From: Escherichia phage ECML-359
Reading direction: 5' to 3' (one strand)
DNA length: 64,000 nt
Sequence record: OL631482.1
Both the position numbers and the translations under genes were made by a program. The notes beneath the pieces were generated by a model. That model did no database searches, was not told the origin of the DNA, and saw only the letters and a list, made by a program, of their open reading frames with translations. Every line of letters begins with the position of its first letter. The first letter of the stretch is position 1. This document shows positions 6,865-62,662 of this stretch, piece by piece.

Positions 6865-6937
6865 AATTTTCTCTCTTGGTTAATAAGTTTATTCTCCAGT
6901 GGGGTCATTATACTCCGACCCCAAGAGTTTGTACACT
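6865..6937 (-). promoter_or_regulatory. PeSL-like early promoter cassette (GTGTACA -35, TATAAT -10 inside GGGGTC/GACCCC inverted repeat, conserved leader)
   Basis: Member of repeated about 60-70 bp cassette family; read directly. Confidence 0.6.
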
Positions 6938-6941
6938 AAAC

Positions 6942-7697
6942 TTAATTAAAAATTTGAACAACCATGGAACGTGGGACAACAGTAAATTCACCAGCATGGA
7001 CGACGTTCAGGAGTTCAACCCCATCTTCAATCCACTGGTCTGTTACCCAACCACAAATGGAACTGTTAAATGGGCGTTTGATTTGAACTGGTTTACATAA
7101 CAAGTCAATAGGGTCACCCAGTTCGCTAACTTCTTCCAGCAGTACAGATTCACGCGGATAAAGGATAGCTTCAAGATTGTCACCTGATTCATTGACCGCA
7201 GTAAATTCAAAGATGCTTTGGTGATTGTGGTACTTAACTGTTTTAACGGTAAATGGAGCAAATCCAAAAATACCTTTCAGTACCCGCCACCCGGCATGCA
7301 TTGCAACAGTCTTTCCAAACTGACTGGCATCTTCAATAAGCTGATAGGTTTTACCAACTTTGATGGGAGTTTCTTCAACTTCTTTGAAGAGTTCAATCTC
7401 AGCTTCATAAACCATAATTTTTTCTACTTCATTTGTATCAAGGCGACGTGCATGCAAAATATATGCTTTATCAAACCAGTTACTTTTTACAAAAGTTTCA
7501 ACAATAAATTCACCTTCGCCTAAAGCATCAGTCAGAGTATTATACCCAGAAACCATAGCTGCGTTTTGAATAATAGGTTCAATCAGTTGATAAGTTTTGT
7601 TAATTTCAATAGTCATATTTTGTTTCTCAAGTTTTAATGGTTTAATTGGGCGAACATACATGCTTACAACATCAAAGTCAATAAATTCTGGTTTCAT
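6942..7697 (-). CDS. hypothetical protein (251 aa) with internally duplicated domain
   Basis: Two similar segments, each ending like the C-terminus of 6373-6864. Confidence 0.5.
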   Translation of the reverse strand: MKPEFIDFDVVSMYVRPIKPLKLEKQNMTIEINKTYQLIEPIIQNAAMVSGYNTLTDALGEGEFIVETFVKSNWFDKAYILHARRLDTNEVEKIMVYEAEIELFKEVEETPIKVGKTYQLIEDASQFGKTVAMHAGWRVLKGIFGFAPFTVKTVKYHNHQSIFEFTAVNESGDNLEAILYPRESVLLEEVSELGDPIDLLCKPVQIKRPFNSSICGWVTDQWIEDGVELLNVVHAGEFTVVPRSMVVQIFN

Positions 7698-7954
7698 TAT
7701 GTAACCTTATTGAACATCGCCAGTTGGTTAGGTTGTACAACCATAATTTCACGACGGCCTTTTGCGTTTGACACGTTCAAGTAGATGCCTTTGTTCATGT
7801 CTGTTTCTTTATCATATACCGCAATTTTATTGACAGTAAAGATTTTACCACGAATATTTGTAAATGCACATTCAAACGCTTCAGTCAGACCTGCTTCAGC
7901 AGCTTGAAGAGCAGACATTTCATATTGTTGGCCAATTTCAAAAGAAGTAATCAT
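7697..7954 (-). CDS. hypothetical protein (about 85 aa from MITSFEIGQQ...)
   Basis: ORF-track N-terminal extension ...SSTTDEDNK is translation of the PeSL leader; start moved to ATG after the conserved leader. Confidence 0.45.
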   Translation of the reverse strand: MITSFEIGQQYEMSALQAAEAGLTEAFECAFTNIRGKIFTVNKIAVYDKETDMNKGIYLNVSNAKGRREIMVVQPNQLAMFNKVT

Positions 7955-8016
7955 TTTGTTATCCTCATCAGTAGTTGATGAGATGATTATGTCTCTTTCC
8001 ATTGGCCTTGTACACT
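7955..8016 (-). promoter_or_regulatory. PeSL-like early promoter cassette
   Basis: GTGTACA ... TAATCAT ... ATCAACTACTGATGAGGATAA leader. Confidence 0.55.
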
Positions 8017-8021
8017 ACTTT

Positions 8022-8705
8022 TTATCGTTTTTTCGGTAAAGATAACGGGTCTGCATCTTCTTCGGAAGGAACTTCATCCAAACCAAGAGCATAGCGCTGG
8101 GCATACTTAAGCATCAAAATATCTTTCGCGCAGTCATGCACCGAATCATGCGCCACAAATCCATCTAAAGTCCCCTTTGGTAATGGAGTTTCACACATCT
8201 TACGGACGAGTGATAGGGCTTCGATTGCTGTCCTGATATCTCGCTGGTTCCAGAATACAACCGGCTCCAGGCCATAGGTATTCAATTCACGCTCGGGAAT
8301 ACCCTCATTGCGCTGTAGGTCACGGATAAGGTCAACAAACAACGGGAAGTCAAAAGACATTCCACGACACCACATAAGGCTTTCGTATTTGTTAATTCCA
8401 TTACCATTCAGATAATCAATTGCCTGTTGGATACCGGTCAGAGTATCAACATCTTGCGCAGAAGGAGCCAAGTTAACACGGGCTTCTGCTGATTGCTTTT
8501 TCCACCAACCCATGGTTGTTGTATCGAACAGACGCTTACCTTTTTGGTATTCAAGGCTAAACTTGATACGTTTGCCGCGATTAACCAGGGTTTCGAATGA
8601 TTCCACAATAGCAGGGTCAGATTCGAATGTAATCAGAGCCAGGTCAATAACGGCTCCCTTCGAGCCGTTTCCCAGAGTTTCAAAGTCAATAATAGCATCA
8701 ATCAT
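8022..8705 (-). CDS. dexA: exonuclease A (227 aa)
   Basis: Size and position match T4 DexA; DEDD-type exonuclease-like N-terminus (IIDFETLG). Confidence 0.75.
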   Translation of the reverse strand: MIDAIIDFETLGNGSKGAVIDLALITFESDPAIVESFETLVNRGKRIKFSLEYQKGKRLFDTTTMGWWKKQSAEARVNLAPSAQDVDTLTGIQQAIDYLNGNGINKYESLMWCRGMSFDFPLFVDLIRDLQRNEGIPERELNTYGLEPVVFWNQRDIRTAIEALSLVRKMCETPLPKGTLDGFVAHDSVHDCAKDILMLKYAQRYALGLDEVPSEEDADPLSLPKKR

Positions 8706-10595: not shown

Positions 10596-11339
10596 TTAAC
10601 CTCTAATCAGTTTAAAAATTGACGCGTTCAAAGGCAGACCACGTTTCAGTTTAAGGCGGTCAATGAATGACAACTTATCTAAACGCTCCAGACCTTGAAT
10701 AATTTTATCATACATATCGTAACGCGTTTCAGCGTCAGATGATTTCATTTTCAGACGCCAGTCAGGACCACCCATAACCATTTTCAGCCCACGTTGACTA
10801 GTTCCGATGGAAGCCATTTGTCCATGGATACGAGCCTTGACTGCAATCACAGAAGGGGTGGTATCTTTAGCGCCACTTTTATAAAGCTCTTTTAAATGTT
10901 TTTGACGCTTCTTGATTCCACGCTCGGTATCTTTAATATTTTTAACAATTTTGCGAATTTTATAATAGTCAGCGGGAGTTACTTTAAAACTATTGGGCAT
11001 CTTAGAACCGCCATTAATACGCACCGCCAAACGAGTCTGTGCACGTTTAAGTTCATCAAGAGATAAATCAGCACGTAAACCGTTGTACTTAGTTTTGACA
11101 GGGATAACATTGCCTTCAATATAACCTATATCATTGTTAAAGCGTTCAAAGGAAACTTTATCTTGAGTTGAATTTTCATCAAAACGTTCACCAGAATACG
11201 CACAGAATTCTTGTTTCAAAAGATTGGCGATATACTTACTAGACAGATTGAAATCCTTGTTACGACGTTTTGCAGACGTTTTGGTATGCTCGCGACGTTT
11301 GTAAACTTTTAATTCAAACTCTTCTTTTGACATATTCAT
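10596..11339 (-). CDS. srd: Srd-position protein (247 aa) with degenerate HNH-like motif
   Basis: Position between dda.1 and modA as in T4; motif CAYSGERF...SFERFNNDIGYIEGNVIPV resembles HNH core lacking Cys/His ligands. Confidence 0.45.
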   Translation of the reverse strand: MNMSKEEFELKVYKRREHTKTSAKRRNKDFNLSSKYIANLLKQEFCAYSGERFDENSTQDKVSFERFNNDIGYIEGNVIPVKTKYNGLRADLSLDELKRAQTRLAVRINGGSKMPNSFKVTPADYYKIRKIVKNIKDTERGIKKRQKHLKELYKSGAKDTTPSVIAVKARIHGQMASIGTSQRGLKMVMGGPDWRLKMKSSDAETRYDMYDKIIQGLERLDKLSFIDRLKLKRGLPLNASIFKLIRG

Positions 11340-11414
11340 GATATTTTTCTCATCTTACGGACGTGAATAACTCAGTACGGAATCATTATATACTATTCAT
11401 CTTTCATGTACACC
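11340..11414 (-). promoter_or_regulatory. PeSL-like early promoter cassette (variant B leader)
   Basis: GTGTACA ... TATAAT followed by GATTCCGTACTGAGTTA leader. Confidence 0.55.
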
Positions 11415-11472
11415 ACTTTTTCGCCTTTAACGCTTTTATTTTTACTGTGTATAATGGTTCTAAGGTCTTTGG

Positions 11473-12087
11473 TTAGTTCAAAACAGTCAAATGCCAAACA
11501 GTATACAGGGTATTCAATGGGTGTGTTTCAATCAAGTCTACGCGGAGCGTAGTCCCAGCGGGAAACATAAACTCATCTTCATCATTAACCAGGTGCAAGT
11601 TTGACTTCCTGGTTGCTTCTGGATATGCACCATTGAACTCTTCAGGAGGAGCACCGCAAATCATTTTGAAGATTGCTTCCTGATAGTTATACGCATATGG
11701 TGCATTGTTTATACAGAAAATGTTCCTTGTGCCATAGAAACTGTATGATGCGAAATTTCTTGCAACTTGCCAGTCCCTGGAAAAACTCATTACACGATTG
11801 AATTCAATTGTTGCACCAACATATCTTAAATCTTCCAGGTATTCCATGGTTTTCTTTGATATACCACGGAACAATGCTGCCGGCGGTGCAGTATTCAGAT
11901 TGTTGCGGATAATCCTGGACAAGTCTTCTTGAATCAGGTCAGGTTTATTTTCCATACACTGCCAGAGTACTGATTGCTCATTATTTGTGTAAAGAGCATC
12001 AATCTCCGCTTGACATTGGTTACGAAAAGACTCACTAGAAGCGGCAGTGTCAATAATTCCATTCAAAACGTCATCAGTGTACAGCAT
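11473..12087 (-). CDS. modA: ModA-like ADP-ribosyltransferase
   Basis: R-S-E type motifs (FRGISKK, MSFSRD, EDEFMF); N-terminal ...STTDEDNK of track ORF is PeSL leader, start set to MLYTDDV. Confidence 0.6.
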   Translation of the reverse strand: MLYTDDVLNGIIDTAASSESFRNQCQAEIDALYTNNEQSVLWQCMENKPDLIQEDLSRIIRNNLNTAPPAALFRGISKKTMEYLEDLRYVGATIEFNRVMSFSRDWQVARNFASYSFYGTRNIFCINNAPYAYNYQEAIFKMICGAPPEEFNGAYPEATRKSNLHLVNDEDEFMFPAGTTLRVDLIETHPLNTLYTVWHLTVLN

Positions 12088-12149
12088 TTTATTATCCTCA
12101 TCAGTAGTTGATAGGAACATCTTAACGTGTCTTATTGCTCTTGTACACA
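12088..12149 (-). promoter_or_regulatory. PeSL-like early promoter cassette
   Basis: GTGTACAAG (overlaps modB 3' end) ... CTATCAACTACTGATGAGGATAAT leader. Confidence 0.55.
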
Positions 12150-12692
12150 GTCAAGAACATAATAATCATCAATAAATCCAGCATCAACTACCACGAATTT
12201 CTGGTCAACTGGAACAAACCATTCAAGCTCAGAATCAATCATGTCCATGTATTCTTCGCGCCTTAATGTAGCTGCCCGGGCGGAACCAGAAGCTGTATTG
12301 AAGAATTCCAGTGGAACGTCAAGCGCGATTTTGCGCATTGCATCATGGTAGCAAAAAGCTTTGGTCTGATTCAATCTGACGATAGTCCTAGTCACATATT
12401 CCATTGCAGCAAAATCCCTGGCAATACCATAGTCTTCTGTAAAGGAGGTTACCCGTCCAAATTCAAAAGGTTGCATTGATTCTTTTGCTTCATCTAATAA
12501 ATCAATCTCTTGCTGGGTTACTCCGCGCCACAAGACTGTATCGGGTATAGACAACCTTGACTTGATGATTGAGTTGACATTTGAATGCAAGGTCTTATCA
12601 ACCTTTGATGTGCGGCATTCAAATAATGAAGCTATCTCCATTTCACTAAATTTTAACTGGTTGGGTTCGGTATCAGATTTGATGATGTTCAT
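12132..12692 (-). CDS. modB: ModB-like ADP-ribosyltransferase (186 aa)
   Basis: R-S-E motifs (WRGVTQQ, TSFTED, ELEWFVP); paralog of modA in tandem. Confidence 0.6.
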   Translation of the reverse strand: MNIIKSDTEPNQLKFSEMEIASLFECRTSKVDKTLHSNVNSIIKSRLSIPDTVLWRGVTQQEIDLLDEAKESMQPFEFGRVTSFTEDYGIARDFAAMEYVTRTIVRLNQTKAFCYHDAMRKIALDVPLEFFNTASGSARAATLRREEYMDMIDSELEWFVPVDQKFVVVDAGFIDDYYVLDCVQEQ

Positions 12693-12749
12693 AATGGTCT
12701 CTCTGTTGTAAGAAAGACCATTATGTCATTAGGAGGGGAGTAAGTAAAC
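12693..12749 (-). promoter_or_regulatory. early promoter (GTTTAC -35, CATAAT -10) with stem-loop GGTCTTTCTT...AGAGAGACC
   Basis: Read directly upstream of modB. Confidence 0.5.
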
Positions 12750-13024
12750 TACTTAAACACTCCAAGTGGAACGCCAAAGACTGCAATGTCTACGGCCATG
12801 CCAATAGGAGATTGATATGATGAGTTAGGAGATTGATATGATGAGTAAGAACTTTTCGATTCTGTCGGTCGTTCGGCTTTAATTGTCTCGGATTCAGTCT
12901 TAAGCCTTTGTAACCGATTAATTTTTTGTTGCTCGATTTCCTTATGAGCATGTTTACGGTCGATATCCAGCGCCGATGTGGGAATATTTGTTAACCAGTT
13001 CATTGTTTCACCCATGGTGCCCAT
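12749..13024 (-). CDS. hypothetical protein with Ser/Tyr-rich repeat and C-terminal hydrophobic segment
   Basis: ...SSYQSPNSSYQSPIGMAVDIAVFGVPLGVFK; contains 21-bp tandem repeat. Confidence 0.4.
   Translation of the reverse strand: MGTMGETMNWLTNIPTSALDIDRKHAHKEIEQQKINRLQRLKTESETIKAERPTESKSSYSSYQSPNSSYQSPIGMAVDIAVFGVPLGVFK
12805..12846. repeat. perfect 21-bp tandem repeat x2 (taggagattgatatgatgagt)
   Basis: In-frame duplication encoding SSYQSPN/SSYQSPI. Confidence 0.8.
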
Positions 13025-18055: not shown

Positions 18056-18349
18056 TTATTCACCTGTAACCCATTGAACAATTTTGCTATTGTCAAATGA
18101 AGCATCGCAATACAGAACATAGTTATACTGCATAACGTCACCAGAAGTCAATTTGTCAGATACTTCTTTAACCATATCAGGGCGGTCACGTTTAGTTATG
18201 TTCATAATATCAGCATAAATCTGATGTTCAACATCAGTCTGGTCAGCAGTCATAGACCACTCACAAAGGTCTTTATCAAGTCCAGCAGTAACTGGAGCTG
18301 TACCACATGATGCTACGGTAAGAATTGCCGCGATTAATAACTTTTTCAT
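18056..18349 (-). CDS. sp: spackle-like periplasmic protein (97 aa)
   Basis: Signal peptide MKKLLIAAILTVASC; T4 Sp size and 61.3 position. Confidence 0.55.
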   Translation of the reverse strand: MKKLLIAAILTVASCGTAPVTAGLDKDLCEWSMTADQTDVEHQIYADIMNITKRDRPDMVKEVSDKLTSGDVMQYNYVLYCDASFDNSKIVQWVTGE

Positions 18350-18417
18350 TTCAATCTCCTCAGTAGTTGATAGGGATAATATACAGCATTATCCCTTTGT
18401 TGTACACTATTTTAATG
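18350..18417 (-). promoter_or_regulatory. PeSL-like early promoter cassette
   Basis: GTGTACA ... TATATT within GGGATAAT/ATTATCCC inverted repeat ... ATCAACTACTGAGGAGATTGA. Confidence 0.6.
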
Positions 18418-18646
18418 CATCTTCCAGATAAATTTTGCGGAATTTGCGTTTTGTCTGACGAATCTGACGCTTGGTAGGTTTCACAGGAAATTCGAAGAAC
18501 TCTACGTATTCTTGTTCATAATCATTGTGGCCGACTGAAAGAACTAGTTCCCAGCTGCTTACGGTGCGTTGGATAAACATATTATGCTTACCAAAAGATT
18601 TATTCCAAAAAGAACTAGGGGTAGGTTTCATTAATGCGATATTCAT
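18407..18646 (-). CDS. hypothetical protein (79 aa, 61.4 position)
   Basis: Minus ORF. Confidence 0.4.
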   Translation of the reverse strand: MNIALMKPTPSSFWNKSFGKHNMFIQRTVSSWELVLSVGHNDYEQEYVEFFEFPVKPTKRQIRQTKRKFRKIYLEDALK

Positions 18647-18850: not shown

Positions 18851-19168
18851 TTAGATTTCCTCACAGAAGGCCCAGGCAGCGTGATAAACTGTTGCGCCTT
18901 TAGTATCATTTAAACAAACCACGTCAACCGGTGCAATCACACGATAAAGACGGGGTTCTCCTCCATATGAGCGAGCTGCTCTTCCTGCATAGATACGCGC
19001 CAAACCAATATCTTCAGTAAAAAACACACGCCCTAAATTTTTCTTACGTCCAACTTCTGACAGAACACCAGTTGCATCAGGAGGACAAAGCATATTTTGG
19101 ATTCCAGCATTAGAGCTTGACCCATGATAATAAACTTTGTATTCTGCCTTGCAATCAATGGTTTTCAT
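18851..19168 (-). CDS. hypothetical protein (105 aa) with own early promoter
   Basis: Minus ORF between dmd and gene 41; GGAGAATAAA site. Confidence 0.45.
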   Translation of the reverse strand: MKTIDCKAEYKVYYHGSSSNAGIQNMLCPPDATGVLSEVGRKKNLGRVFFTEDIGLARIYAGRAARSYGGEPRLYRVIAPVDVVCLNDTKGATVYHAAWAFCEEI

Positions 19169-19207
19169 TTTATTCTCCAGTAGTTGATAGGGTCATTATA
19201 ACATAAG
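19169..19207 (-). promoter_or_regulatory. PeSL-like early promoter (TTATAAT + conserved leader)
   Basis: TGTTATAATGACCCTATCAACTACTGGAGAATAAA directly after gene 41 terminator. Confidence 0.55.
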
Positions 19208-19228
19208 AAAAAGGGGCTGTAAGCCCCT
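19207..19228 (-). terminator. terminator hairpin AGGGGCT-gta-AGCCCCT with T run
   Basis: Downstream of gene 41 stop. Confidence 0.7.
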
Positions 19229-19239
19229 TTTAAAATATT

Positions 19240-22919: not shown

Positions 22920-23158
22920 TTGGTTTCCTTGATGATAATTAACTGTGCGTTTGATTTACGTTCAGCAACGAGTGCCCAAATAAACGCAATAAACCACCCA
23001 ACCATTGTCCAACCTAACAGAAGGTTAACAAAGAAGATTCCGCAATTACTTTTGGTTCCACGCAGTAGCGCGATAATCCACGGTAGAAAATAGGTCAGTG
23101 CAGCCAAGAAGAAAGAACCAGCACCAAGAACAACAGTACCCGCAATTAATGTTTCCAT
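22916..23158 (-). CDS. imm: Imm-like superinfection immunity membrane protein (80 aa)
   Basis: Two TM helices; adjacent to gene 43 as in T4. Confidence 0.5.
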   Translation of the reverse strand: METLIAGTVVLGAGSFFLAALTYFLPWIIALLRGTKSNCGIFFVNLLLGWTMVGWFIAFIWALVAERKSNAQLIIIKETK

Positions 23159-23230
23159 TTTAATATCCTTAAGTTAATCATCAGTAATTGATGGAGTAAT
23201 CATACGGCAATCCTTTGCCATTGTAAACAC

Positions 23231-36818: not shown

Positions 36819-36880
36819 TTTTGTTTTCCTCATCAGTAGTTGATGGGATAATGATACACCGTTCAAAGGGGCTTGTACAC
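36819..36880 (-). promoter_or_regulatory. PeSL-like early promoter cassette; -35 embedded in hairpin GGGGtgtacaaGCCCC
   Basis: GTGTACA ... TATCAT ... ATCCCATCAACTACTGATGAGGAAAA. Confidence 0.55.
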
Positions 36881-36887
36881 CCCTTTT

Positions 36888-43150: not shown

Positions 43151-44136
43151 TTAAGCAGCTCCAGAGCTTGTTCCAGTTTATCCAGACGATTAGTTGATTC
43201 TTCCCAAAGTCGCTTGGCTTTGGTATAGTCTTCAGTTGCCTTTTTATTAACAGCAAGAGCTTTATTATACGCCATTTCCAGAGCAACAATTTCAGGCGCT
43301 TTTTGTTCCACTGGCTCATTATTCAGATTATCAATCAGGTCTTCAAGGGTGGTTTCTTGCGGAGCATTCATAATTTCCTCACTTTTCTTTTTATAAATTT
43401 CTGCAACAGTTGGTTGTTTTGCACATTTAACTTCACGCAATGTCGCCACAATTTTCCAACCTTTCCAACCATGAGTACTGGTGATAGGGTCTACTTTAAT
43501 TTTTTCAACAGTGCGCATATAGTTAAGGGCACACTGCAGCTGTGAAGTAAGCGTGCTCGCGGCATCAAGATACTTTTTGACATTTTCTGGAGTAGCTACC
43601 GGCGTAAAGAATTCATACTTAACTGTAATAATTACCTGGTTTTCACCAGACTCTTTAACCTTTATCATGTGCTCAGCCAAATGGGAGATAGTGCGATAAT
43701 CGCTACCCATCAATTTTGTCGCTGATTTGATGATAGACATTTTGTTATCTCTGAATTCACGAGCCCAGCAATTTGCGAATTCAGAAACAGTATAGCCTTG
43801 TTTATCAAGGTAGTATTTTTCAACATCACCAAACCAATGATATCCAATTGTACCTTTACCATGTCTGGATTCAACGCCAAACTTATTAAGAAGGTCTTTA
43901 TTAACTAGGTATGCCAGGACTCGGGAACCTTTAAAAGTTTTCTTGATATCATCTTTACCCGCACGACTCGCAATAGTCGCGATGTCTTTCTTGAAGCGAC
44001 CAGATGCAACAATCGTCGAGTCAATCTGATTTAACCAGTAATTGATAATTAAAAGGATAGCCGATTCACCTATTAATGGTTTTACTTTTGTATCAATAGT
44101 GGTGTTAAAGGCCTGGATATATTCGTTGCGCGTCAT
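43147..44136 (-). CDS. hypothetical protein (329 aa) with C-terminal coiled coil
   Basis: Heptad-like C-terminus ...[13 protein letters not shown]. Confidence 0.45.
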   Translation of the reverse strand: MTRNEYIQAFNTTIDTKVKPLIGESAILLIINYWLNQIDSTIVASGRFKKDIATIASRAGKDDIKKTFKGSRVLAYLVNKDLLNKFGVESRHGKGTIGYHWFGDVEKYYLDKQGYTVSEFANCWAREFRDNKMSIIKSATKLMGSDYRTISHLAEHMIKVKESGENQVIITVKYEFFTPVATPENVKKYLDAASTLTSQLQCALNYMRTVEKIKVDPITSTHGWKGWKIVATLREVKCAKQPTVAEIYKKKSEEIMNAPQETTLEDLIDNLNNEPVEQKAPEIVALEMAYNKALAVNKKATEDYTKAKRLWEESTNRLDKLEQALELLK

Positions 44137-44194
44137 AGTGTTCTCCTCATAAAGTAGGAATTCATTATACTCCCTCCATCCTTGGAAGTAAACA

Positions 44195-45076
44195 TTATTT
44201 TAATGCTAAAATCGCCGCCTGCAATTTATTGCGTTGTGTTTCCATATTCTTGATGCGATTCATAACATCCTGAATACTCTTTTTCTCATCTTCAATCAGA
44301 CCGTTTAAGCGGTTGACTGATTCCTGGATAGCATCAGCATGATAGCTCTCAATAGGCTTCATTGGTGGGTTAAAGATTTCAAGAGAGCTGTTTGGCTGGA
44401 TTTTCCATTGATACATATTTTTAACTTCCAGTGGTGAAATTTTAGCCTGGTCGTAAGATTTAAACTGACCTGTAACTGCTGGGTTATATGTCGCAGTAGG
44501 GATATGTTCTGCCATTTCTGGTTCCTTTTTCTCTTGATAAGGTGCATAAGACAAAAGATATTCTTTAGTTAATTTAATATCAATGACTATAGTTTTAAGG
44601 AATTTTTCCGTTTGGTGGATATAATTTGTATCTTCTTCAAACGTGTATGCTTCAACAGCATGGCGCATATAAAACAGCGCGATACCCATAACCTCTTTAA
44701 AGGTATCACAAAGAGCAACGTCGCCCTTGGTGGTTGGTTTGAACTTAATCTGTATACCATCATTCTTGATATTGATAATCAAGTTACTGGAGTTAAAATT
44801 ATAGTTCTTGATGTTAACCGGAGCCTTGCGAATACGAAGCCCGCCAGCCAGGATTTCCTTAATGCTCTTACGAACTGTGGCACCAAACAAAAACGCAGGG
44901 CGGCGACAGTAATCATTCAGAGAGTTAATTCTTACAATACGTTGTCCATACCCCTGGGTGGCAGAACCTGATTTGATTTTACCAAAGTTAACCAGAGAAT
45001 TCATCGCGATAAGACGGGTTGCACGACCTTCACGCTGTTCAAATCGAGAATATTCTTTACGTGTTTTAATGTTCAT
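44195..45076 (-). CDS. hypothetical protein with C-terminal coiled coil (ORF 44195-45127 trimmed)
   Basis: Ends ...NKLQAAILALK; start moved to MNIKTRKEY. Confidence 0.45.
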   Translation of the reverse strand: MNIKTRKEYSRFEQREGRATRLIAMNSLVNFGKIKSGSATQGYGQRIVRINSLNDYCRRPAFLFGATVRKSIKEILAGGLRIRKAPVNIKNYNFNSSNLIINIKNDGIQIKFKPTTKGDVALCDTFKEVMGIALFYMRHAVEAYTFEEDTNYIHQTEKFLKTIVIDIKLTKEYLLSYAPYQEKKEPEMAEHIPTATYNPAVTGQFKSYDQAKISPLEVKNMYQWKIQPNSSLEIFNPPMKPIESYHADAIQESVNRLNGLIEDEKKSIQDVMNRIKNMETQRNKLQAAILALK

Positions 45077-46203: not shown

Positions 46204-46728
46204 TTATGCGAGAACCGTCTTTAAACGCTCTTCAAACTTCCGAAGGAGTACCTGGCGCTCTGCTCTTTGTTTGGTATAGGTTTCAATACGCTCTGAAGTG
46301 AGATTGTATTGTTCATTAACTGATTCCCTCATGAATTCAGGAATCTCTTTACATGCTTTGATTTCATTGAACTTATCAAGCACCGCTTGTTGTTCAGCAA
46401 TCAGACCATCATAATATTGGATATCTGATTTGATGTTTTGTACATCAGATTCAGTAGGCATATTTTTCTTCGCTCTTGTCGCCTGATACTCTGCATTAGT
46501 CTCTCTTGACCAGAACAAAGAGCGGTTTTTGTTGGTGTTTTTATACACATCAACAATACCTACTGAATCAACAGTCACAATCCAGTTCCAGGCGTTTTTA
46601 TAAGTTTGACCACCTGATACTGTAATCTCACCCGCACAAGCAACATCATTAAAGAACTTGCTTTGTGCTTCTGATTTAAAATTACCATTATTGTAATTAA
46701 TCAGATTAAAGATTGATTTAGCTTCCAT
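46204..46728 (-). CDS. hypothetical protein (174 aa) with C-terminal coiled coil
   Basis: PeSL promoter and GGAGAATAAA site upstream. Confidence 0.45.
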   Translation of the reverse strand: MEAKSIFNLINYNNGNFKSEAQSKFFNDVACAGEITVSGGQTYKNAWNWIVTVDSVGIVDVYKNTNKNRSLFWSRETNAEYQATRAKKNMPTESDVQNIKSDIQYYDGLIAEQQAVLDKFNEIKACKEIPEFMRESVNEQYNLTSERIETYTKQRAERQVLLRKFEERLKTVLA

Positions 46729-46794
46729 TTTATTCTCCAGTATTTGGTAACTCAGTATGGGAACATTATACGTCTATCCCCATACCATGTACAC
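46729..46794 (-). promoter_or_regulatory. PeSL-like early promoter cassette (variant B leader)
   Basis: GTGTACA ... TATAAT ... GTTCCCATACTGAGTTACCAAATACTGGAGAATAA. Confidence 0.55.
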
Positions 46795-46796
46795 AT

Positions 46797-47099
46797 TTAA
46801 TTAAAAGTTCTTTCAGTCTTTTCACCACTGAACCAGACGCTCTTAACGGCTTGCTGGGCGCGATGAAGCTGCTCTGCCATATAAACACCAAGGGCCTCAG
46901 CTTTACGTGCCCTGTGAGCTTCTGCGGCGACTATTTGCAACTTATCCATCATGATAAGAGCTTTACATTTCTCCTTCAGAGCATATCGCTTCTTCTCTTC
47001 TGGGGTTTTGACCATTCCTCTTAACTTGTGCATTTTCAACTTAAAATGGTCAGCAGATTTCAGACATGCCTCAATCATGCCAAGTTCATACTTTTTCAT
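46797..47099 (-). CDS. hypothetical protein (100 aa)
   Basis: Minus ORF. Confidence 0.4.
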   Translation of the reverse strand: MKKYELGMIEACLKSADHFKLKMHKLRGMVKTPEEKKRYALKEKCKALIMMDKLQIVAAEAHRARKAEALGVYMAEQLHRAQQAVKSVWFSGEKTERTFN

Positions 47100-47105: not shown

Positions 47106-47312
47106 TCACTTGCGACGACGTTTTGGTAATGGTTTAGGGAAGAACATTGCTTTACCTGCAGGGGTCAAAGTCACGCGCAAAGCATTACCAATACCAAGGG
47201 ATGCTTTAACCAGACCTTTGGCTTTTAACTCACCAAATGCTTGACGTTGTTCAGGGTCACGAGTGTTAACCATCAGACCTTTTTCACCAGCAGCTTTGAT
47301 TAATTCTAACAT
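47106..47312 (-). CDS. small protein with basic C-terminal tail (68 aa)
   Basis: Ends ...FFPKPLPKRRRK. Confidence 0.4.
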   Translation of the reverse strand: MLELIKAAGEKGLMVNTRDPEQRQAFGELKAKGLVKASLGIGNALRVTLTPAGKAMFFPKPLPKRRRK

Positions 47313-47383
47313 TTTATTCTCCGTTTGTTTATTTGGTAACTCAGTATGGAATCATTATGCATCATGACCATCTGGTTGTACAC
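47313..47383 (-). promoter_or_regulatory. PeSL-like early promoter cassette (variant B leader)
   Basis: GTGTACA ... CATAATGATTCCATACTGAGTTACCAAATAAACAAACGGAGAATAA. Confidence 0.55.
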
Positions 47384-47429
47384 ATATACTAAATAAAAAT
47401 ACTTAATAAAACCATAAAGGAGAAAGTTT

Positions 47430-51424: not shown

Positions 51425-51627
51425 TATTCCACCACATATGATAATGAGAAAATTGCTGATGAAAGATGAGTAGCATCTTCTTCGCACAGTTCAAATGGAG
51501 CTTTCTGCAAGAGTTCAACCACTTCTTCATCAGTGGCACTGTCCATAAAGATTGCATAATCATTAAGATAGATAACAACCTCATCACCAGTATTAACTGC
51601 ATCAATCTTGATATTTTTAATTCTCAT
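51424..51627 (-). CDS. hypothetical protein (67 aa)
   Basis: PeSL promoter and GAGGAG site upstream. Confidence 0.4.
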   Translation of the reverse strand: MRIKNIKIDAVNTGDEVVIYLNDYAIFMDSATDEEVVELLQKAPFELCEEDATHLSSAIFSLSYVVE

Positions 51628-51686
51628 TGTATTCTCCTCAGTAGTTGATGGGATAATAGTACACCCTTTTTATGAGGATGTAAACC
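51628..51686 (-). promoter_or_regulatory. PeSL-like early promoter cassette (GTTTAC -35, TATTAT -10)
   Basis: Conserved leader ATCCCATCAACTACTGAGGAGAAT. Confidence 0.5.
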
Positions 51687-51695
51687 CCCTAAATG

Positions 51696-51726
51696 AAAAA
51701 AGGTCCACCCGAAGGCAGACCTTTTG
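51696..51726 (-). terminator. bidirectional-type hairpin AGGTC-N12-GACCT flanked by A5 and T4
   Basis: Read directly. Confidence 0.5.
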
Positions 51727-55258: not shown

Positions 55259-55717
55259 TTAGATATAAATCACTTTTGTGCTAATTTTTCCTTCCAGACG
55301 ATTAGAGTTAACAAACGCCATACGACAACACATGGTCGGAGACTTCCCAGGAATAGCGGGGTTAACTGTCATTCCTAACCACAGGTTCTTGTCTGTAATT
55401 TCCAGACGAAGTGGACGGTAGTTCACATTCGGGTCAATTTGTGCTTCAACTTCCGGGAGTGGTTTCATCTCCAAGAATTCAACGATTTCTTTTACATGTG
55501 GTGTGATTTTTCCAAACAAGTCAAAAACATATTGTTCATCAATTTCACGTTGGATTGCACGGTCCAACAGGTGCGGACTGTACTTAATGAAGAATGCTTC
55601 AAGGCCTGCTTCTTTACAAGCCTTGTTGATAGCATTATTAATTTTGAGGAACTCCGTTTCAAAAATGCGACGAAGTTTATTGCGGCGAATGTAAACACTT
55701 GAATCGATAGTAGTCAT
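55259..55717 (-). CDS. regB: RegB endoribonuclease (about 152 aa from MTTIDSS...)
   Basis: IRRNKLRR...HLLDRAIQREIDE resembles T4 RegB; track N-terminal extension is PeSL. Confidence 0.7.
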   Translation of the reverse strand: MTTIDSSVYIRRNKLRRIFETEFLKINNAINKACKEAGLEAFFIKYSPHLLDRAIQREIDEQYVFDLFGKITPHVKEIVEFLEMKPLPEVEAQIDPNVNYRPLRLEITDKNLWLGMTVNPAIPGKSPTMCCRMAFVNSNRLEGKISTKVIYI

Positions 55718-55773
55718 GATTATCTCCTTTTGTTTGATGGGATAATCATAACTCATTTCAATCTGCTTGTACA

Positions 55774-55775
<2 letters not shown>
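55718..55775 (-). promoter_or_regulatory. PeSL-like early promoter cassette
   Basis: GTGTACA ... ATCCCATCAAACAAAAGGAG. Confidence 0.5.
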
Positions 55776-56353
<578 letters not shown>

Positions 56354-57552: not shown

Positions 57553-57852
57553 TTAGAAAGAACCAGAACCTTTAATTGTGTTCTGGCGACCTTTATTTTC
57601 TAATTCAGAATGGTCGATTTCGTATGCTTGTGCTACACCAAAGGCCTTTTTAACTTTAGCTAAAGAACCTTTAGATGTAACAATATTAAAAGTATTGCCT
57701 TTAGTAAAATCAACCAAATCCACTTGTACACCCTGTTTACCGAGGCTTGCTACAATAGCATCAACATATTGTTGGTCTAAAGTACCTTGGACTCCAATTT
57801 GGAATGCTTTAGGGGCTTTGGCTTCTGTGATAAATTCTTGATAAGTTTTCAT
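57553..57852 (-). CDS. internal protein (IP) paralog with capsid-targeting N-terminus
   Basis: N-terminus MKTYQEFITEA matches T4 IPII/IPIII capsid targeting sequence. Confidence 0.6.
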   Translation of the reverse strand: MKTYQEFITEAKAPKAFQIGVQGTLDQQYVDAIVASLGKQGVQVDLVDFTKGNTFNIVTSKGSLAKVKKAFGVAQAYEIDHSELENKGRQNTIKGSGSF

Positions 57853-57906
57853 TTATTCTCTCCAAGTTGATGGGATAATTATACACTATCCCATCATAAA
57901 GTAAAC
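57853..57906 (-). promoter_or_regulatory. PeSL-like early promoter cassette (GTTTAC -35, TATAAT -10)
   Basis: TGTTTAC ... GGGATAGTGTATAATTATCCCATCAACTTGGAGAGAATAA. Confidence 0.55.
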
Positions 57907-57908
57907 AG

Positions 57909-58211
57909 TTATGCTTTACCGCCAGAAACAATACCAAAGGTCTCAAAGTCCCATTCAATATCATCAACATCAACTTTCTTACCAGCAACAACAAATGCGA
58001 TTTCACGGCGTTTTGCATAGGTGACAATTTCTTTACCATCACCGCCAAAGAAAGAATACCCATTACGCTTCATGGTGCCAAAGTCTTCAGCATCGCCAGC
58101 AAAGGCGCGAACTTTAAAAGCACCAGTAGGAGCTTTGGCAGATTCAGTAATAAATTCTTGATAAGTTTTCATTTTATATTCCATTGTTTGGTTGATAAAA
58201 TCATTATACAA
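57909..58211 (-). CDS. internal protein (IP) paralog
   Basis: N-terminus MKTYQEFITES; tandem with 57553-57852. Confidence 0.6.
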   Translation of the reverse strand: MYNDFINQTMEYKMKTYQEFITESAKAPTGAFKVRAFAGDAEDFGTMKRNGYSFFGGDGKEIVTYAKRREIAFVVAGKKVDVDDIEWDFETFGIVSGGKA

Positions 58212-58220
58212 CCTTTTTAG

Positions 58221-58637
58221 TTAAGCGTACACAGCTTTCCCATAGTATTTGTACCAGGTAGGCTTTTGAGAAATTTTCTCATTCAGTCTGGCTTGACTGA
58301 TTTCAATTGACCAGATTGATGGTTGATAATCATTCTTCCATTCATCAGGAATATCATTTAAATCTTGTGTAGAAATATCTTTTATGTTAAACCCTCGCTT
58401 TAAACATTCCGCAATAAGTTCTTGATGCCGGTTTTTAAGGAACAAAAGCTTATCATAAAAGAAGGTGACATGACCAGTCCCTAAAAGAAAAGATGATGGG
58501 ATTTTAAAGTCAGACACCTTTTTACCATTTTGCACATGCTTACGAACAGCGCCAAAAACGCGAGGAAGTTCACGATATTCAGCCATAAGATGTTGGTCAG
58601 CGAGTTCAGATACCAGGGTTAAATTAATGCGAGTCAT
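58221..58637 (-). CDS. denV: endonuclease V DenV (138 aa)
   Basis: N-terminus [26 protein letters not shown] matches T4 DenV; same length. Confidence 0.85.
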
Positions 58638-58693
58638 GTTTGTTCTCCGTAGTTGATAGGGTCATTATAACCCTATCATTTGGAGATGTACAC
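58638..58693 (-). promoter_or_regulatory. PeSL-like early promoter cassette
   Basis: GTGTACA ... GATAGGGTTATAATGACCCTATC stem-loop ... AACTACGGAGAACAAA. Confidence 0.6.
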
Positions 58694-59181
58694 TAATATG
58701 CGTCAAAAGTTCCGGTACGGAACGTTTCTATAACTCGTTTGGCTCGGTTCGGAGTCTGGACTTTATACCATCTTGAGTCCGCCAGTTCCTTGGCAGCCGC
58801 TTCCCATGATTTAGCCTTCAGTAATCGCATACCCTTAGGAAAACCAGCAACACCAGCAACACCCATCTGGAATACCATATTAATGAGTGCACAACGACGA
58901 ACTTCATCCAGTACATCATAAACAGGTTTTAAGACAGGATGCCTCAAGATTCCGGCTTTAGCCTTTTCGACCGAACGGTTAAACAGTGTTTCGGCTTCGT
59001 GCTGGGTTATACGACCATTACAAACGCGACCCATGAGCTTATCGAGCTCGGCGCGAGCAACATCTTTAGATGGGTTCTTAGTTATCAGTTGCCCGATGCC
59101 AATGGTCCAATAGCCTTCAGTATCTTTATACAAATCCAACTTACAACCTTCATCTATACGTAACATTTCGAATATATTCAT
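58693..59181 (-). CDS. e: lysozyme e (endolysin, 162 aa)
   Basis: [12 protein letters not shown]...[13 protein letters not shown]...[12 protein letters not shown] matches T4 lysozyme including catalytic E11/D20. Confidence 0.9.
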
Positions 59182-59205: not shown

Positions 59206-59207
59206 TA

Positions 59208-60479: not shown

Positions 60480-61171
60480 TACCAGCCCTCCATAGGGAAT
60501 TCCAGATATACTTGAGCATTAACGCGGATTTCATTTGTAATCTTTTTAACACGGTCAGTATTACGAGACACACGACCAAACCAGCGCCACCCGTTACTTA
60601 CTGCGCGAGAACCTGTATGCCATGTCTGCCAATCAAACTGGAGCAATGTGCGGTCAGGAGCATCCCACTTGGTTAATTCATTGGACTCAATTTTTTCCAG
60701 AACTTCTTTATGCCACTGACGATAGATAAGTTCGCCTTCAGGAATCTGACTAAATTGTGCAGTTCCGGTTGCAAAATAAGTAGGACACACATCAGCGTTA
60801 ACAAGACCAAGAATATGTTCAGAATGGTAACGAGGATTATCATAATCAGGTTGCCCTGCGGTAATAAAGTGTTGACCCACCGGAATATCCGGACGTGGTA
60901 CATCGTCATGGTGATAACCTGGGATAGCAGGATACCAACCAGGCATCAGCATATGAACCCGAGAATCAAACACCAAATTATCGGGGCCATCAGTCCATTC
61001 TTTTGGTAGGTTATCAAGAAAACTGCGCGTGATTGGACCACCATGCTCATACGCAAATTCTGGATAGCAGTTAAAGAACATTGGTTCATTTTTGATTTGG
61101 TCATTTTGTACGTTATGTGCAAAACCACCAACTGCACGAGCTTGACTATTAAAAGTTTTCGGACCGTTCAT
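60479..61171 (-). CDS. hypothetical protein (230 aa) with HHDD...H cluster
   Basis: GYHHDDVP ... YHSEHILG, possible metal-binding site. Confidence 0.4.
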   Translation of the reverse strand: MNGPKTFNSQARAVGGFAHNVQNDQIKNEPMFFNCYPEFAYEHGGPITRSFLDNLPKEWTDGPDNLVFDSRVHMLMPGWYPAIPGYHHDDVPRPDIPVGQHFITAGQPDYDNPRYHSEHILGLVNADVCPTYFATGTAQFSQIPEGELIYRQWHKEVLEKIESNELTKWDAPDRTLLQFDWQTWHTGSRAVSNGWRWFGRVSRNTDRVKKITNEIRVNAQVYLEFPMEGW

Positions 61172-61228
61172 AATATTTTCCTCATTGATTGTGGGACCAT
61201 TGTGTCATAGTCCCACTTGGATGTACAC
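61172..61228 (-). promoter_or_regulatory. PeSL-like early promoter cassette with stem-loop GTGGGAC...GTCCCAC
   Basis: GTGTACA ... stem-loop ... AATCAATGAGGAAAA. Confidence 0.5.
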
Positions 61229-61230
61229 AA

Positions 61231-62190
61231 TTATTTTTCGAAAGGACGAATTAAATGCTGGTTAGCTTTGAAACGTTTAACATAGTCTTCATGACCCAGG
61301 GTGTTGTACATATTAACCACTTCCTGGTAATGTTCCCAGGCATACTCGCGGAACCATCCAGAAGTAATGGAGGTGCAGACTTTTTCCAGCGCAATATTGA
61401 AGCTCACGGATGGAGAGATATTGAACTCATTGGGAACCTGCGAACGCTCCAGAGCGAGTACACATGCTTCTTCATAAACCCCTGCCAGTTTAATAATCTC
61501 AGGGAGTGCTTCAAATTTTTCACGCGAGGTCATAACTTCTGAATCATCCTTCATATAGAACTTATATGCAGGCTTATCAGCAAGCGCCACGGCCTCGTGG
61601 ATGGAGTCATGGTCAAGGGTATAGATTGTATCATTAAAGAAAGTTTTCTTGCCCACGTCTAGTTTAGGGTGACTATATGACAATGTTTCTGCCTGGCGCT
61701 GCAGCATGATTTTATGCAGTTCGTCATTAAGAACAACACCCTTATTGCGAAGGTAATTAATATGACTCATTGTCTTCAGGAAGAATGGATTGTTCTTCAG
61801 GTAACGATGAGACAGTTTAATTGCCAGACAAATATCAGGAGTCGCCCAATAGAAACCTGTAAGACGGTCTTTCTTAATATGATTTTCAGCGTATTTCAAG
61901 AGACGATAACTTGAGGTGAAATCTTCATCTTGAAGCTCACCAGTAATTTCTCGTACGTTAGTCAGGGCACGGACAATATAAGCTTCAAAATAGGTTTCTT
62001 TTCCATTGTACATACATTTAAAAGCTTGGACATCAGGGTTATCCACAGGAACATGAGCACCGAACATACGTGCTTTAAAGTGGTTCCAGGAGCCCTGGTC
62101 AGCGATAAAGTCCCAATCAGAGTTTTCAATTTTCTGACTTTCAATCAGACCAGCGTTATGTAATGCACGAGAACCAATAACTAACATCAT
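61231..62190 (-). CDS. hypothetical protein (319 aa)
   Basis: Minus ORF. Confidence 0.45.
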   Translation of the reverse strand: MMLVIGSRALHNAGLIESQKIENSDWDFIADQGSWNHFKARMFGAHVPVDNPDVQAFKCMYNGKETYFEAYIVRALTNVREITGELQDEDFTSSYRLLKYAENHIKKDRLTGFYWATPDICLAIKLSHRYLKNNPFFLKTMSHINYLRNKGVVLNDELHKIMLQRQAETLSYSHPKLDVGKKTFFNDTIYTLDHDSIHEAVALADKPAYKFYMKDDSEVMTSREKFEALPEIIKLAGVYEEACVLALERSQVPNEFNISPSVSFNIALEKVCTSITSGWFREYAWEHYQEVVNMYNTLGHEDYVKRFKANQHLIRPFEK

Positions 62191-62381
62191 AATATTTTCC
62201 TCATTAGTAAAGACGAGTTACTTCATATTTTCCAAGTGCCGATTTTTTCGCTTCAATTCGTGAGGCAGCAAGATTGGCGGCCTCTAGTGAAGAAAATTGA
62301 ACCACTTGAGAAGTATTCTGTCTTACTCCACCTTGCGGGTGAGTGACAAAAACAATAAGAACATTATACATAATATTTTCC

Positions 62382-62582
62382 TCAAATAATACCGTATGCG
62401 TAAATATCTCTTTTAATGCAGGAAACTACTTCTTCCAAAGAATCACAAACACGTTCTGTGGCGCCTGCGTAATCACCACTGATGGTTACTTTAATACCAT
62501 CAGAAACTTCCTGGAGATTAACCTCCAGTTGGTTGACTTTGGCTTCGTTCAGAACTTTGATTAATTCGTTTGCGATAGACAT
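62382..62582 (-). CDS. hypothetical protein (66 aa)
   Basis: Minus ORF with PeSL upstream. Confidence 0.4.
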   Translation of the reverse strand: MSIANELIKVLNEAKVNQLEVNLQEVSDGIKVTISGDYAGATERVCDSLEEVVSCIKRDIYAYGII

Positions 62583-62662
62583 TTTTATTCTCCTGTTCTG
62601 ATAACGCGATTGTCATCAGTTGATAGGAGTATAGTAACACAGTTTTTTAGACTTGTATACTG
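62583..62662 (-). promoter_or_regulatory. PeSL-like early promoter cassette (divergent copy)
   Basis: GTATACAAG ... CTATCAACTGATGACAATCGCGTTATCAGAACAGGAGAATAA. Confidence 0.45.

Follow-up and report, generated by a model that had tools for sequence, protein, structure and literature searches.

The window analysed here, a stretch of 64,000 nt from the genome of Escherichia phage ECML-359 (OL631482.1), carries a dispersed family of short promoter cassettes, 19 of them between positions 6862 and 62674 and one weaker copy at about 2758. They are very likely immediate-early host sigma-70 promoters, packaged with a strong ribosome-binding leader as portable expression cassettes, a reading that takes in a hairpin step and a recombination step. 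A sigma-70 early promoter joined to a strong ribosome-binding site (RBS) is predicted with high confidence, and a hairpin step specific to read-through RNA is proposed with moderate to low confidence. The phage is assigned to Gaprivervirus (VR7/SP18 group, Tevenvirinae) and not to the RB49 group (Krischvirus); in the phage collection it is matched best by Escherichia phage pEC-M719-6WT.2 (97%), EAWsc9, Yersinia phage P8, RZ, VR20, VR25, VR7 and Shigella SP18. Every long open reading frame (ORF) of the window lies on the minus strand. Gene order agrees with that of VR7 over its first ~64 kb, the two sequences being collinear through rIIA, 39, dexA, dda, modA/B, 41, uvsX, 43, 45, 46, 55, nrdD, nrdC, tk, regB, the internal-protein (IP) genes, denV and e, and the window therefore represents what is classically the early and middle region of T4-like phages.

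One leader word, ATCAACTACTGAGGAGAAT, has six matches in the window at three or fewer mismatches, all on the minus strand, where 0.03 are expected. A chance origin of the family was rejected. A second leader word, ATACTGAGTTACCAAATA, occurs twice without mismatch, again on the minus strand, and a repeat search of the window returned one family of nine copies, 55 nt long. An nhmmer profile made from 16 cassette copies recovered all 16 in leave-one-out searches at E ≤ 0.013 (14 of them at ≤ 1e-4). It also matched two copies that were not in the seed, c61228 (E 2e-4) and c62659 (E 0.11), and a candidate inside an ORF at 41293 (E 0.04). The copy 5′ of modB (c12750), where the profile has no match, was added by eye from the intergenic sequence. 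The first-pass annotation had proposed about 17 cassettes; the repeated family stands where it was placed, and its number rises to 19, with the weaker copy lying outside the range originally given. GTGTACA is found 13 times on the minus strand and twice on the plus strand, against 5.5 expected, and 11 of the 13 fall within cassettes. That TGTACA is palindromic and reads alike on both strands, as had been pointed out, is trivially true; all cassettes are nonetheless on the minus strand. Generic sigma-70 scans of the window had no power (63 sites where 61 are expected in one scan, 48 where 52 are expected in the other); the signal sits in the family-specific profile. No Rfam family matched anywhere in the window, and seven small ORFs driven by cassettes had no Pfam match. 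The exact A-type leader (the first of the two words above) was found by a scan of IMG/VR in only five stretches, carried by four contigs, one of which is a metagenome contig of 34.8 kb.

All copies in the window lie directly 5′ of accessory early genes, 50–95 nt from the start codon, as expected from the earlier proposal of a cassette recurring before accessory genes. The genes so preceded are motB, srd, modA, modB, sp, imm, 55.6, nrdC.4, nrdC.8, mobD.5, regB, the IP genes, denV and several small ORFs. Only one of the 19 copies is found in the 17.6-kb replication block (19.2–36.8 kb; binomial P=0.018), which is served by MotA-box middle promoters instead. For comparison, the window was aligned with VR7 and seven further relatives (TH15, TH22, TH40, TH41, TH44, TH54 and TH55). 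Being multi-copy and dispersed, with many inverted repeats and with copies at non-orthologous sites, the cassettes could be taken for selfish miniature mobile elements, similar to miniature inverted-repeat transposable elements (MITEs) or to REP elements, that carry promoter-like words by accident. This is scarcely credible, and it was rejected on the rules of orientation and position: all 141 profile matches in the window and its eight relatives are co-oriented with the genes and stand at a fixed distance from the start codon, no gene is interrupted by a cassette, and the cassette ends show no terminal inverted repeats or target-site duplications, the repeats being internal and different from copy to copy.

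Alignment of 20 copies gave the consensus TTTAAAAnnnGTGTACAA-N-GTATAATGATCCCATCAACTACTGA..ATAAAATG, in which the TAC of the −35 element, A−11 and T−7 are invariant. The −35 element is GT(G/T)TAC in 17 copies (GTGTAC in 12, GTTTAC in five) and GCTTAC, GTATAC or ATGTAC in the others. Of 19 spacers, 17 are 17 nt long and two are 16 nt. The 25 nt 5′ of the −35 element are 72% A+T, compared with 60% for the window, and include an AAA run in 11/20 copies. Downstream of the −10 element, a C-rich region at −6 to −1 (positions −3 to −1 hold at least two C in 15/20 copies and at least one in 19/20) is followed by the predicted start, which is the A of ATCAAC or ATACTG; an A is found 7 nt past the −10 element in most copies. 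The leader of 20–40 nt is of type A (ATCAACTACTGAGGAGAAT) or type B (ATACTGAGTTACCAAATA...GGAGAAT), with AAAATG next, and all 20 aligned copies end at their 3′ side in a Shine–Dalgarno (SD) sequence and an ATG. A GTGTACA or GTTTAC −35 element, a TATAAT-like −10 element and a conserved leader that gives the ribosome site, the anatomy originally described, are seen in the alignment. The B-type leader (CCATACTGAGTTACC) is almost confined to Gaprivervirus, with a few Morganella and Providencia phages, and occurs at 8–13 places per Gaprivervirus genome. The SD sequence contains GGAG, the motif cleaved by RegB, in 9/18 cassette genes and in 16/118 other genes (P=0.001), and regB itself is preceded by a cassette. 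By hairpin class, GGAG is found in 6/8 hairpin cassettes and 5/11 without, a small sample that shows no link.

The early promoters of T4, of the Tevenvirinae type (Wilkens and Rueger; Miller et al. 2003), are reviewed in PMC2988021, and logos for T4 relatives are given in PMC1524935. In T4-like phages the early promoters have GTTTAC at −36 to −31, an A-rich stretch at −40 to −44 and C-rich positions −3 to −1, and they precede early genes as well as novel ORFs (PMC1524935); those of T4 have been called 'uber' UP/−35/TGn/−10 promoters (PMC2988021). The window cassettes have in common with them the GTTTAC-type −35 element, the 17-nt spacer, the TAnnnT −10 element, the A-rich UP-like region, the C-rich −3 to −1 and the site before early genes and ORFans. 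They differ in that the −35 element is mostly GTGTACA, with G at −34 (12/20), instead of GTTTACA. The likeness extends to particular loci. A −10 element plus leader of the form TA(C/T)TATTA(T/C)CC(C/T)ATCAACTACTGAGGAGAATAAAATG is ~92% identical by blastn to the trna.4 promoter of the T2/T6/RB32 type, and the 3′ half of the mobD.5 cassette (c51685) matches, at ~92% identity, a site that hundreds of T-even and Klebsiella T4-like genomes contain. In a Tequatrovirus this site is the trna.4 promoter, and the ipI promoter is its neighbour. Both are annotated there as T4 early promoters that overlap predicted terminators, both have the −10 element in the loop of a 7–9-bp stem, and the profile matched the two annotated promoters at E 3e-9 and 1e-6. 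Jiaodavirus KPV15 carries a like promoter with a strong profile match.

Between orthologues in the nine genomes, the cassette core is 95% identical, the adjacent coding sequence 92% and the 50 nt upstream 84%, a purifying conservation of the core. The family could consist of ordinary promoters, inherited vertically and alike because polymerase and ribosome constrain each of them independently, with no cassette mobility or recombination. The conserved positions are indeed polymerase contacts, T4 early promoters have extended consensus regions (Hinton review, PMC2988021), most cassettes occupy orthologous sites in 9/9 genomes and stand at T4 early genes (motB, modA, modB, regB, IP), and an enrichment of indels at cassettes is not significant. 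Such an account is nevertheless unlikely. Near-identical spacers, leaders and even upstream flanks recur at loci that are not orthologous: the first of the extra units that follow gene 41 in TH44 has a terminator and cassette near-identical to those of the window's mobD.5 gene, driving an unrelated ORF, and the spacers of the two are 93% identical, against a mean of 42% between orthologous groups. The B-type cassette at 8–13 places per genome also speaks against it, as do hybrid cassettes with crossover points in the leader and the variable number of cassette-plus-ORF units at a single junction.

Several such junctions are seen in the alignments. After gene 41 the number of extra units is zero in the window (which has only c19224), one in VR7 (B-type) and two in TH44, while TH54 has a crossover inside c19224 with its boundary at 19206. 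At the IP locus the number of cassette-plus-IP units varies among relatives, the c58232 cassette precedes different IP genes, and TH41 has the c57906 promoter in front of another leader and gene. Beyond the window edge, two units in VR7 and TH22 correspond to one hybrid unit in TH15 and TH41, and the hybrid junctions inside cassettes include TH41_32083 and OG12/OG20. At c47383, six of eight relatives lose homology with the window precisely where the −35 element begins (47383). Co-oriented cassettes as substrates of homologous recombination are shown by these individual cases. Since 50–90 nt of near-identical sequence are repeated in one orientation, the phage recombination system would occasionally cross over within or between cassettes, adding, removing or swapping cassette-plus-ORF units. 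Cassette recombination is a demonstrable but contributory, not dominant, route of gene-content change, and it is worded as contributory in PMC4122927 likewise. The proposed modular shuffling of genes, with cassettes flanking differences in gene content, stands for clear cassette-bounded cases and does not extend to a significant enrichment.

The inverted repeats are more heterogeneous than the first-pass annotation, which had the −10 element usually in a loop, would have it. The −10 element is in, or overlapped by, an inverted repeat in only 8/19 cassettes (c6936, c18407, c46794, c47383, c57906, c58232, c58693 and c61228); the −35 element is in a loop in two (c19224, c36880), and one has a hairpin in the spacer (c23228). 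A stem-loop adjoins or overlaps the promoter in 12/19, a count that includes c51685 with a separate upstream terminator only. GGGG..CCCC stems are found at c19224 and c36880; most others have arms of mixed sequence, G-rich on the 5′ side and C-rich on the 3′ side (for example GATGGGATA/TATCCCATC). As a class the cassettes fold more stably than same-strand control windows (mean minimum free energy (MFE) z-score, taken against shuffles, −1.47 for cassettes and −0.31 for controls, P=3e-4), with z below −2 in 9/19 cassettes and 8.7% of control windows. Complementarity of the arms is bimodal over 32 orthologous groups in the nine genomes, with 14/32 at or below −11.6 kcal/mol, and in an arm-swap test five distinct arm pairs each rank 1/32. 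Orthologues show a compensatory T-A to C-G change (motB) and several G.U-type changes; automated classing of substitutions on MFE pairs was too noisy (spurious pairs, replaced cassettes), and a hand tally of clear stems was used. Stable folding and covarying arms show that the stems are selected. A sequence-specific operator was rejected, as the arms differ between copies. Covarying inverted repeats around the −10 (or −35) element recur in the Gaprivervirus, T-even and RB49 lineages. Terminator-like T-runs are confined to c19224 and to the separate hairpins that precede c51685, c58693 and c2758.

These properties would also fit inverted repeats that act on DNA, as structure-specific or supercoil-dependent sites, for example endonuclease VII targets, or as a device that turns the promoter off. 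Arms that covary yet stay complementary suit a signal read by structure rather than by sequence, and the comparison of sense and antisense folding given below is compatible with selection at the DNA level. Arbiol et al. speculated on a protein that recognises GGGG..CCCC stems (PMC2839356), and the mechanism by which T4 early promoters are shut off is stated as unknown (PMC2988021). Other features make a DNA-level role distinctly unlikely. Changes that pair as wobbles in the sense strand number ~11, against ~3 of the A.C type, in a hand tally that is small and not phylogenetically independent, and before cef a hairpin and leader persist without a promoter. In addition, loops of 7–14 nt are unfavourable to cruciform extrusion.

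The cef element (6325..6372, minus strand) is a half cassette, with a hairpin GATAGGG-TTTTG-CCCTATC, an A-type-like leader AATGAGGAGAATATTATG and no recognisable −35 or −10 element. Its stem is conserved in VR7 and its loop differs (8 nt instead of 5 nt). A hairpin and leader that lack a promoter hint at a role in RNA. A more speculative idea, which we regard as highly improbable, makes the repeat around the −10 or −35 element more than a terminator of the upstream unit, namely a structure-read switch on the promoter or on the fate of early mRNA. It would work either through shut-off, by a factor that recognises hairpins or cruciforms or by supercoil-dependent extrusion, or through a module of hairpin and GGAG that directs processing by RegB or RNase. 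If it were true, it would bear on the unexplained rapid shut-off of T4-type early transcription.

In the preferred reading, that of portable early expression cassettes, host RNA polymerase would fire the cassette promoters within the first minutes of infection. The SD sites are enriched in GGAG, so that many cassette mRNAs would be targets of the phage nuclease RegB. The 5′ arm of each hairpin is upstream of the cassette's own start, and hence only transcripts that read through from the upstream unit can fold it; the hairpins (~60% of copies) would act on such RNA. Two or three of them would be canonical terminators, namely the GGGG..CCCC hairpin with the −35 element in its loop and a T-run, and the separate terminators. 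The stems that hold the −10 element in the loop and have no U-tract are probably attenuators, processing sites or structures that stabilise 3′ ends, and would insulate neighbouring units.

Several points weigh against this reading. The promoter, terminator and RegB roles are all predictions from sequence, and TGTACA agrees with the sigma-70 −35 consensus at only 4/6 positions. Seven of the 19 cassettes have no convincing hairpin, and the −10-loop hairpins lack a U-tract and were not flagged by the terminator scan. The sense strand of the cassettes folds more stably than the antisense by 2.0 kcal/mol (P=9e-4), but random windows do so by 1.2 kcal/mol because the strand is G+T-rich; relative to these controls the asymmetry is at background (P=0.10), and action at the RNA rather than the DNA level is not established. 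Indel boundaries fall at 6/13 cassette junctions and 30/99 others, a difference that is not significant (Fisher P=0.20). Some inserts next to cassettes are not bounded by them: TH44/TH55 carry an IP-like ORF of this kind, VR7 an HNH-like one, and the window the tail-knob gene on its plus strand. Most of the ~38 variable loci between the window and its eight relatives have no cassette. Both points argue against a dominant role.

The first-pass annotation had matched the family to the promoter-early stem-loop elements (PeSLs) of RB49-group phages. The architecture and the in-silico features of PeSLs are present; the phage, however, is a Gaprivervirus and the sequence is of T-even type. PeSLs have been published for T4/PST, RB49/phi1 and nt-1/KVP40, and PeSL-like sequences were noted in JS98 (PMC2839356, PMC4122927). 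The elements of PST/T4 and nt-1/KVP40 (Comeau, Arbiol and Krisch 2014, PMC4122927) combine, as the window cassettes do, an A/T-rich region, a stem-loop, an early promoter (in PST/T4, TTTACW N17 TAYWAT), an SD sequence and a start codon, and they share with them a placement in hyperplastic regions, proximity to indels of close relatives and degraded 'half' elements. The stem-loops of PST/T4 are just 5′ of the promoter, whereas those of the window are commonest around the −10 element, and the association with indels described in that study is not statistically significant in the 8-genome comparison made here.

In RB49 and phi1 (Arbiol et al. 2010, PMC2839356) the architecture is shared, with stem-loops over the −10 element, over the −35 element, between them or upstream, and there too a G-rich 5′ arm is matched by a C-rich 3′ arm (RB49 p004 is GGGGA-(−10)-TCCCCATC) and cassette-plus-ORFan units differ between close relatives. 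Terminator activity and mini-circles were demonstrated experimentally for these phages (PMC2839356). RB49 uses a near-perfect TTGACA −35 element, in contrast to the TGTACA or TTTACA of the window, and against 24 kb of RB49 the profile gave only one site with E<0.01. With a −35 element of T4 type and strong profile matches in T-even phages, the closest described relatives are the T4/PST-type PeSLs and the T4 early promoters (PMC4122927, PMC1524935). The window cassettes are best classed, from their sequence, as T-even-type early promoters and PeSLs in the broad sense of PMC4122927, with the RB49 elements as analogues and not sequence relatives.

Two further systems are comparable. Promoter/stem-loop repeats at the IP loci of T-even phages (Repoila et al. 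1994, in the account given in PMC2839356) have a counterpart in the window's IP genes (57553-58172), which likewise bear cassettes, share an MKTYQEF repeat and vary in unit number; as far as that account goes, the difference is that the window's family is spread over the whole early region. Two repeats of 32 nt (57823-57854 and 58143-58174, 94% identical) occur in the two IP genes, encode the N-terminal MKTYQEFI and extend the cassette homology into the coding region, and boundaries of BLAST blocks of relatives fall within them. In T4 genes e, 49 and I-TevI, a late promoter is reportedly nested in a hairpin that sequesters the ribosome site (McPheeters 1986, Barth 1988, Gott 1988). The nesting is the same in the window cassettes, and these hairpins too can be folded by upstream transcripts and not by those of the nested promoter. 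They differ in that the promoter is an early one and that the 3′ arm ends ~10 nt before the SD sequence, so that translational masking is not evident. No paper describing PeSLs or such cassettes in Gaprivervirus was found in the literature. What is added here is the GTGTACA variant of the −35 element, the clade-restricted B-type leader, the covariation of the −10-loop stems and an estimate of the variation that cassettes explain.

The individual cassettes, all on the minus strand, are as follows. The first of the 19, c6936 (6862..6951, 5′ of motB), has GTGTACA at 6936-6930, a 7-bp stem (TGGGGTC/GACCCCA) with TATAAT in its loop and a longer leader; its profile match has E 3e-8, its RNA MFE z is −2.4, its own arms rank 1/32 and its compensatory T-A to C-G change is relative to VR7. 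The cassette c8015 (7952..8030, 5′ of an 85-aa ORF similar to VR7ORF013c) has GTGTACA, CATAAT and the A-type leader ATCAACTACTGATGAGGAT, with a mini-hairpin in the leader and none at the −10 element. In c11413 (11337..11428, 5′ of srd; E 7e-6, leave-one-out E 0.005) GTGTACA and TATAAT are separated by 16 nt and the leader begins as B-type (GATTCCGTACTGAGTTAT). Before modA, c12148 (12085..12163) has GTGTACA, TAAGAT and an A-type leader but no hairpin. The modB copy, c12750 (12690..12764), is a weaker member with GTTTACT, 17 nt, CATAAT and a leader of its own, which contains a hairpin over the SD sequence (GGTCTTTC/GAGAGACC). In c18407 (18347..18422, 5′ of sp, spackle), GTGTACA is followed by TATATT overlapped by an 8-bp stem (GGGATAAT/ATTATCCC) and an A-type leader; z is −2.3, and homology with VR7, TH44 and TH54 stops 6–7 nt 5′ of the −35 element.

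The −35 element of c19224 (19166..19239, heading an operon that includes the dmd orthologue), GCTTACA, lies in the loop of a terminator (AAAAGGGGC-TTACA-GCCCCTTTTT) and is followed by TATAAT and an A-type leader; the terminator scan matched 19231-19209 on both strands, as for a canonical bidirectional terminator. The sole copy in the replication block, c23228 (23156..23243, 5′ of imm), has GTTTACA, the spacer hairpin GGCAA/TTGCC, TATGAT and a variant of the A-type leader. The top profile match is c36880 (36817..36895, 5′ of 55.6; E 2e-13, leave-one-out E 9e-12, z −2.0), with GTGTACA in the loop of AAAGGGG/CCCCTTT, TATCAT and an A-type leader. The core of c44193 (44134..44208, 5′ of nrdC.4; E 9e-6, leave-one-out E 0.013) is identical in 9/9 genomes and consists of GTTTACT and TATAAT, followed by a divergent leader with GAGGAG. 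In c46794 (46726..46809, 5′ of nrdC.8; z −2.2), GTGTACA precedes TATAAT in the loop of TATGGGGA/TTCCCATA and the B-type leader ATACTGAGTTACCAAATA, and its own arms rank 1/32.

GTGTACA, CATAAT in a bulged stem and a B-type leader make up c47383 (47310..47398, 5′ of a 68-aa ORF similar to VR7ORF098c). Beside it lies the only sizeable plus-strand gene (47430-48176), encoding 248 aa with a tail needle knob of the Sf6 type (PF16532, E 4e-32) and a short collagen-like stretch. This gene is an insert of ~790 nt between c47383 and a terminator (48200-48183, minus strand). The insert is present in TH40 and TH54 and absent from TH55, TH22, TH44, TH41 and TH15; VR7 has a different small ORF in its place. 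The mobD.5 cassette, c51685 (51625..51725), has GTTTACA, TACTAT and the exact A-type leader, with a separate intrinsic terminator (51725-51698) just 5′. Before regB, c55774 (55715..55789) has GTGTACA, TATGAT, a TATCCCATCAAA leader and the SD sequence AAGGAG, and no hairpin (z +2.3).

In the IP region, c57906 (57850..57921, 5′ of an ip7-like gene; z −4.0) has GTTTACT, a 16-nt spacer and a 9-bp stem (GATGGGATA/TATCCCATC) whose loop holds TATAAT, and c58232 (58170..58247, 5′ of the second IP gene; E 6e-7, z −2.2) has GTGTACG and TATAAT in the loop of GGTTG/CAACC. The denV cassette, c58693 (58635..58723; E 6e-11, z −5.3), has GTGTACA and an 8-bp stem (GATAGGGT/ACCCTATC) with TATAAT in its loop, and a terminator-like hairpin (GTTCCGTACCGGAAC plus TTTT) lies just 5′. 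In TH44 and TH55 an insert of 285 nt abuts its −35 element, and the cassette's own arms rank 1/32. The same rank is found for c61228 (61169..61243, 5′ of a 230-aa ORF similar to VR7ORF134c; z −2.1), a copy outside the seed in which GTGTACA is followed by a 7-bp stem (GTGGGAC/GTCCCAC) that has CACAAT in its loop; VR7 carries an insert of 649 nt placed 7–10 nt 5′ of the −35 element there. The last, c62659 (62580..62674, 5′ of a 66-aa ORF), also outside the seed, has GTATACA, TACTAT, a CTCCTATCAACTGATGAC leader with its own hairpin and the SD sequence AGGAGAA. The weaker copy c2758 (2710..2790, at a gene similar to VR7ORF003c; E 0.87) has the terminator GGACCTTCGGGTCC plus T9, ATGTACA, 17 nt, TAAGAT and the SD sequence GAGGTG. 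The candidate extra early promoter in the 3′ end of an ORF (41221..41300), 5′ of a pin-like 57-aa ORF, has GTTTACA, 17 nt and TATAAT but no family leader.

The cassettes also affect gene annotation, and over-extended N-termini had been predicted from a recurrent SSTTDEDNK peptide. This peptide, or one like it, is the in-frame translation of the A-type leader and occurs three times (7981, 12111 and 36843); ORFs are really over-extended through cassettes in two cases (7697..8002 and 11473..12120), and the prediction stands for these two. The MERDIIISSTTDEDNK over-extension at c8015 arises because an in-frame ATG lies in the spacer. The annotation of VR7 gp013 is 306 nt long, equal to the over-extended ORF of the window, which suggests that the RefSeq annotation carries the same start error.

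For annotation in general, the cassettes would give the true starts of ~20 early transcription units, and they correct over-extended ORFs. To phage engineering they would offer natural "plug-in" sites that are insulated and come with a strong promoter and RBS. The Gaprivervirus clade offers an independent, semi-quantitative look at the PeSL hypothesis, in which cassette events explain a minority of the ~38 variable loci, inserts of homing-endonuclease size and plain gene-boundary replacements being commoner. As for mechanism, a −10-in-loop hairpin that covaries, recurs in three lineages and has no U-tract poses a sharper question of its role.

Inserts of ~650–860 nt, the size of homing endonuclease genes, in the relatives are behind many of the differences in gene content: in TH15 at 24322, 28903, 29542 and 59181, in TH40 at 49409, and in VR7 at 4867, 14883 and 61238. 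In the VR7 annotation, segF and an HNH/endonuclease VII-like gene belong to this group, and one TH15 insert is in the DNA polymerase gene region. They are unlinked to cassettes, except for the VR7 insert just upstream of c61228. A 2.4-kb block with the anaerobic ribonucleotide reductase genes nrdD (605 aa) and nrdG (156 aa) at 37698-40096 is replaced by 124–134 nt in VR7 and TH44 and has no cassette at either edge; in TH15, ~1.2 kb of unmatched sequence replaces a 2.9-kb stretch there. In the 61.x region, a 45-nt repeat (17243-17287 and 17613-17657, 89% identical) stands at the starts of two neighbouring small genes, and five relatives have one more unit of 190 nt exactly at 17243-17248, a tandem array without promoter cassettes that varies by unequal crossing-over.

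Other promoter and hairpin sites were noted in the window. The motif TGCTTYA N10-13 TANNNT occurs nine times, against 1.8 expected. In three middle-promoter composites on the minus strand (4842-4890, 14553-14606 and 32904-32955, before gene 39, mrh.2 and an a-gt.2-like gene), the T-run of a terminator leads into a MotA box (TTTGCTTTA) and then a −10 element; the one at 14553 carries an A-type-like leader (TTCAATTACAGAGGAGAAT), and these terminator/MotA-box composites resemble the 'PmSL' elements of nt-1. Further middle-promoter sites are at 15443-15466, 29562-29585, 22205-22252, 34541-34600 and 46140-46200. Just before the lysozyme gene e (59181-59215, minus strand), a late-promoter-like AATAAATA is followed by a hairpin CCCCT-ATATA-AGGGG that includes the ribosome site, which we take to be similar to the arrangement at T4 gene e, where early read-through RNA masks the RBS. 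At 40560-40620 (minus strand) a hairpin ACCCTTA-(loop)-TAAGGGT adjoins a late-promoter-like TAATAAATA just upstream of an ATG. Finally, a tandem duplication of 40 nt in perfect register (8696-8775, 93% identical) spans the start region of dexA and the end of the upstream ORF.

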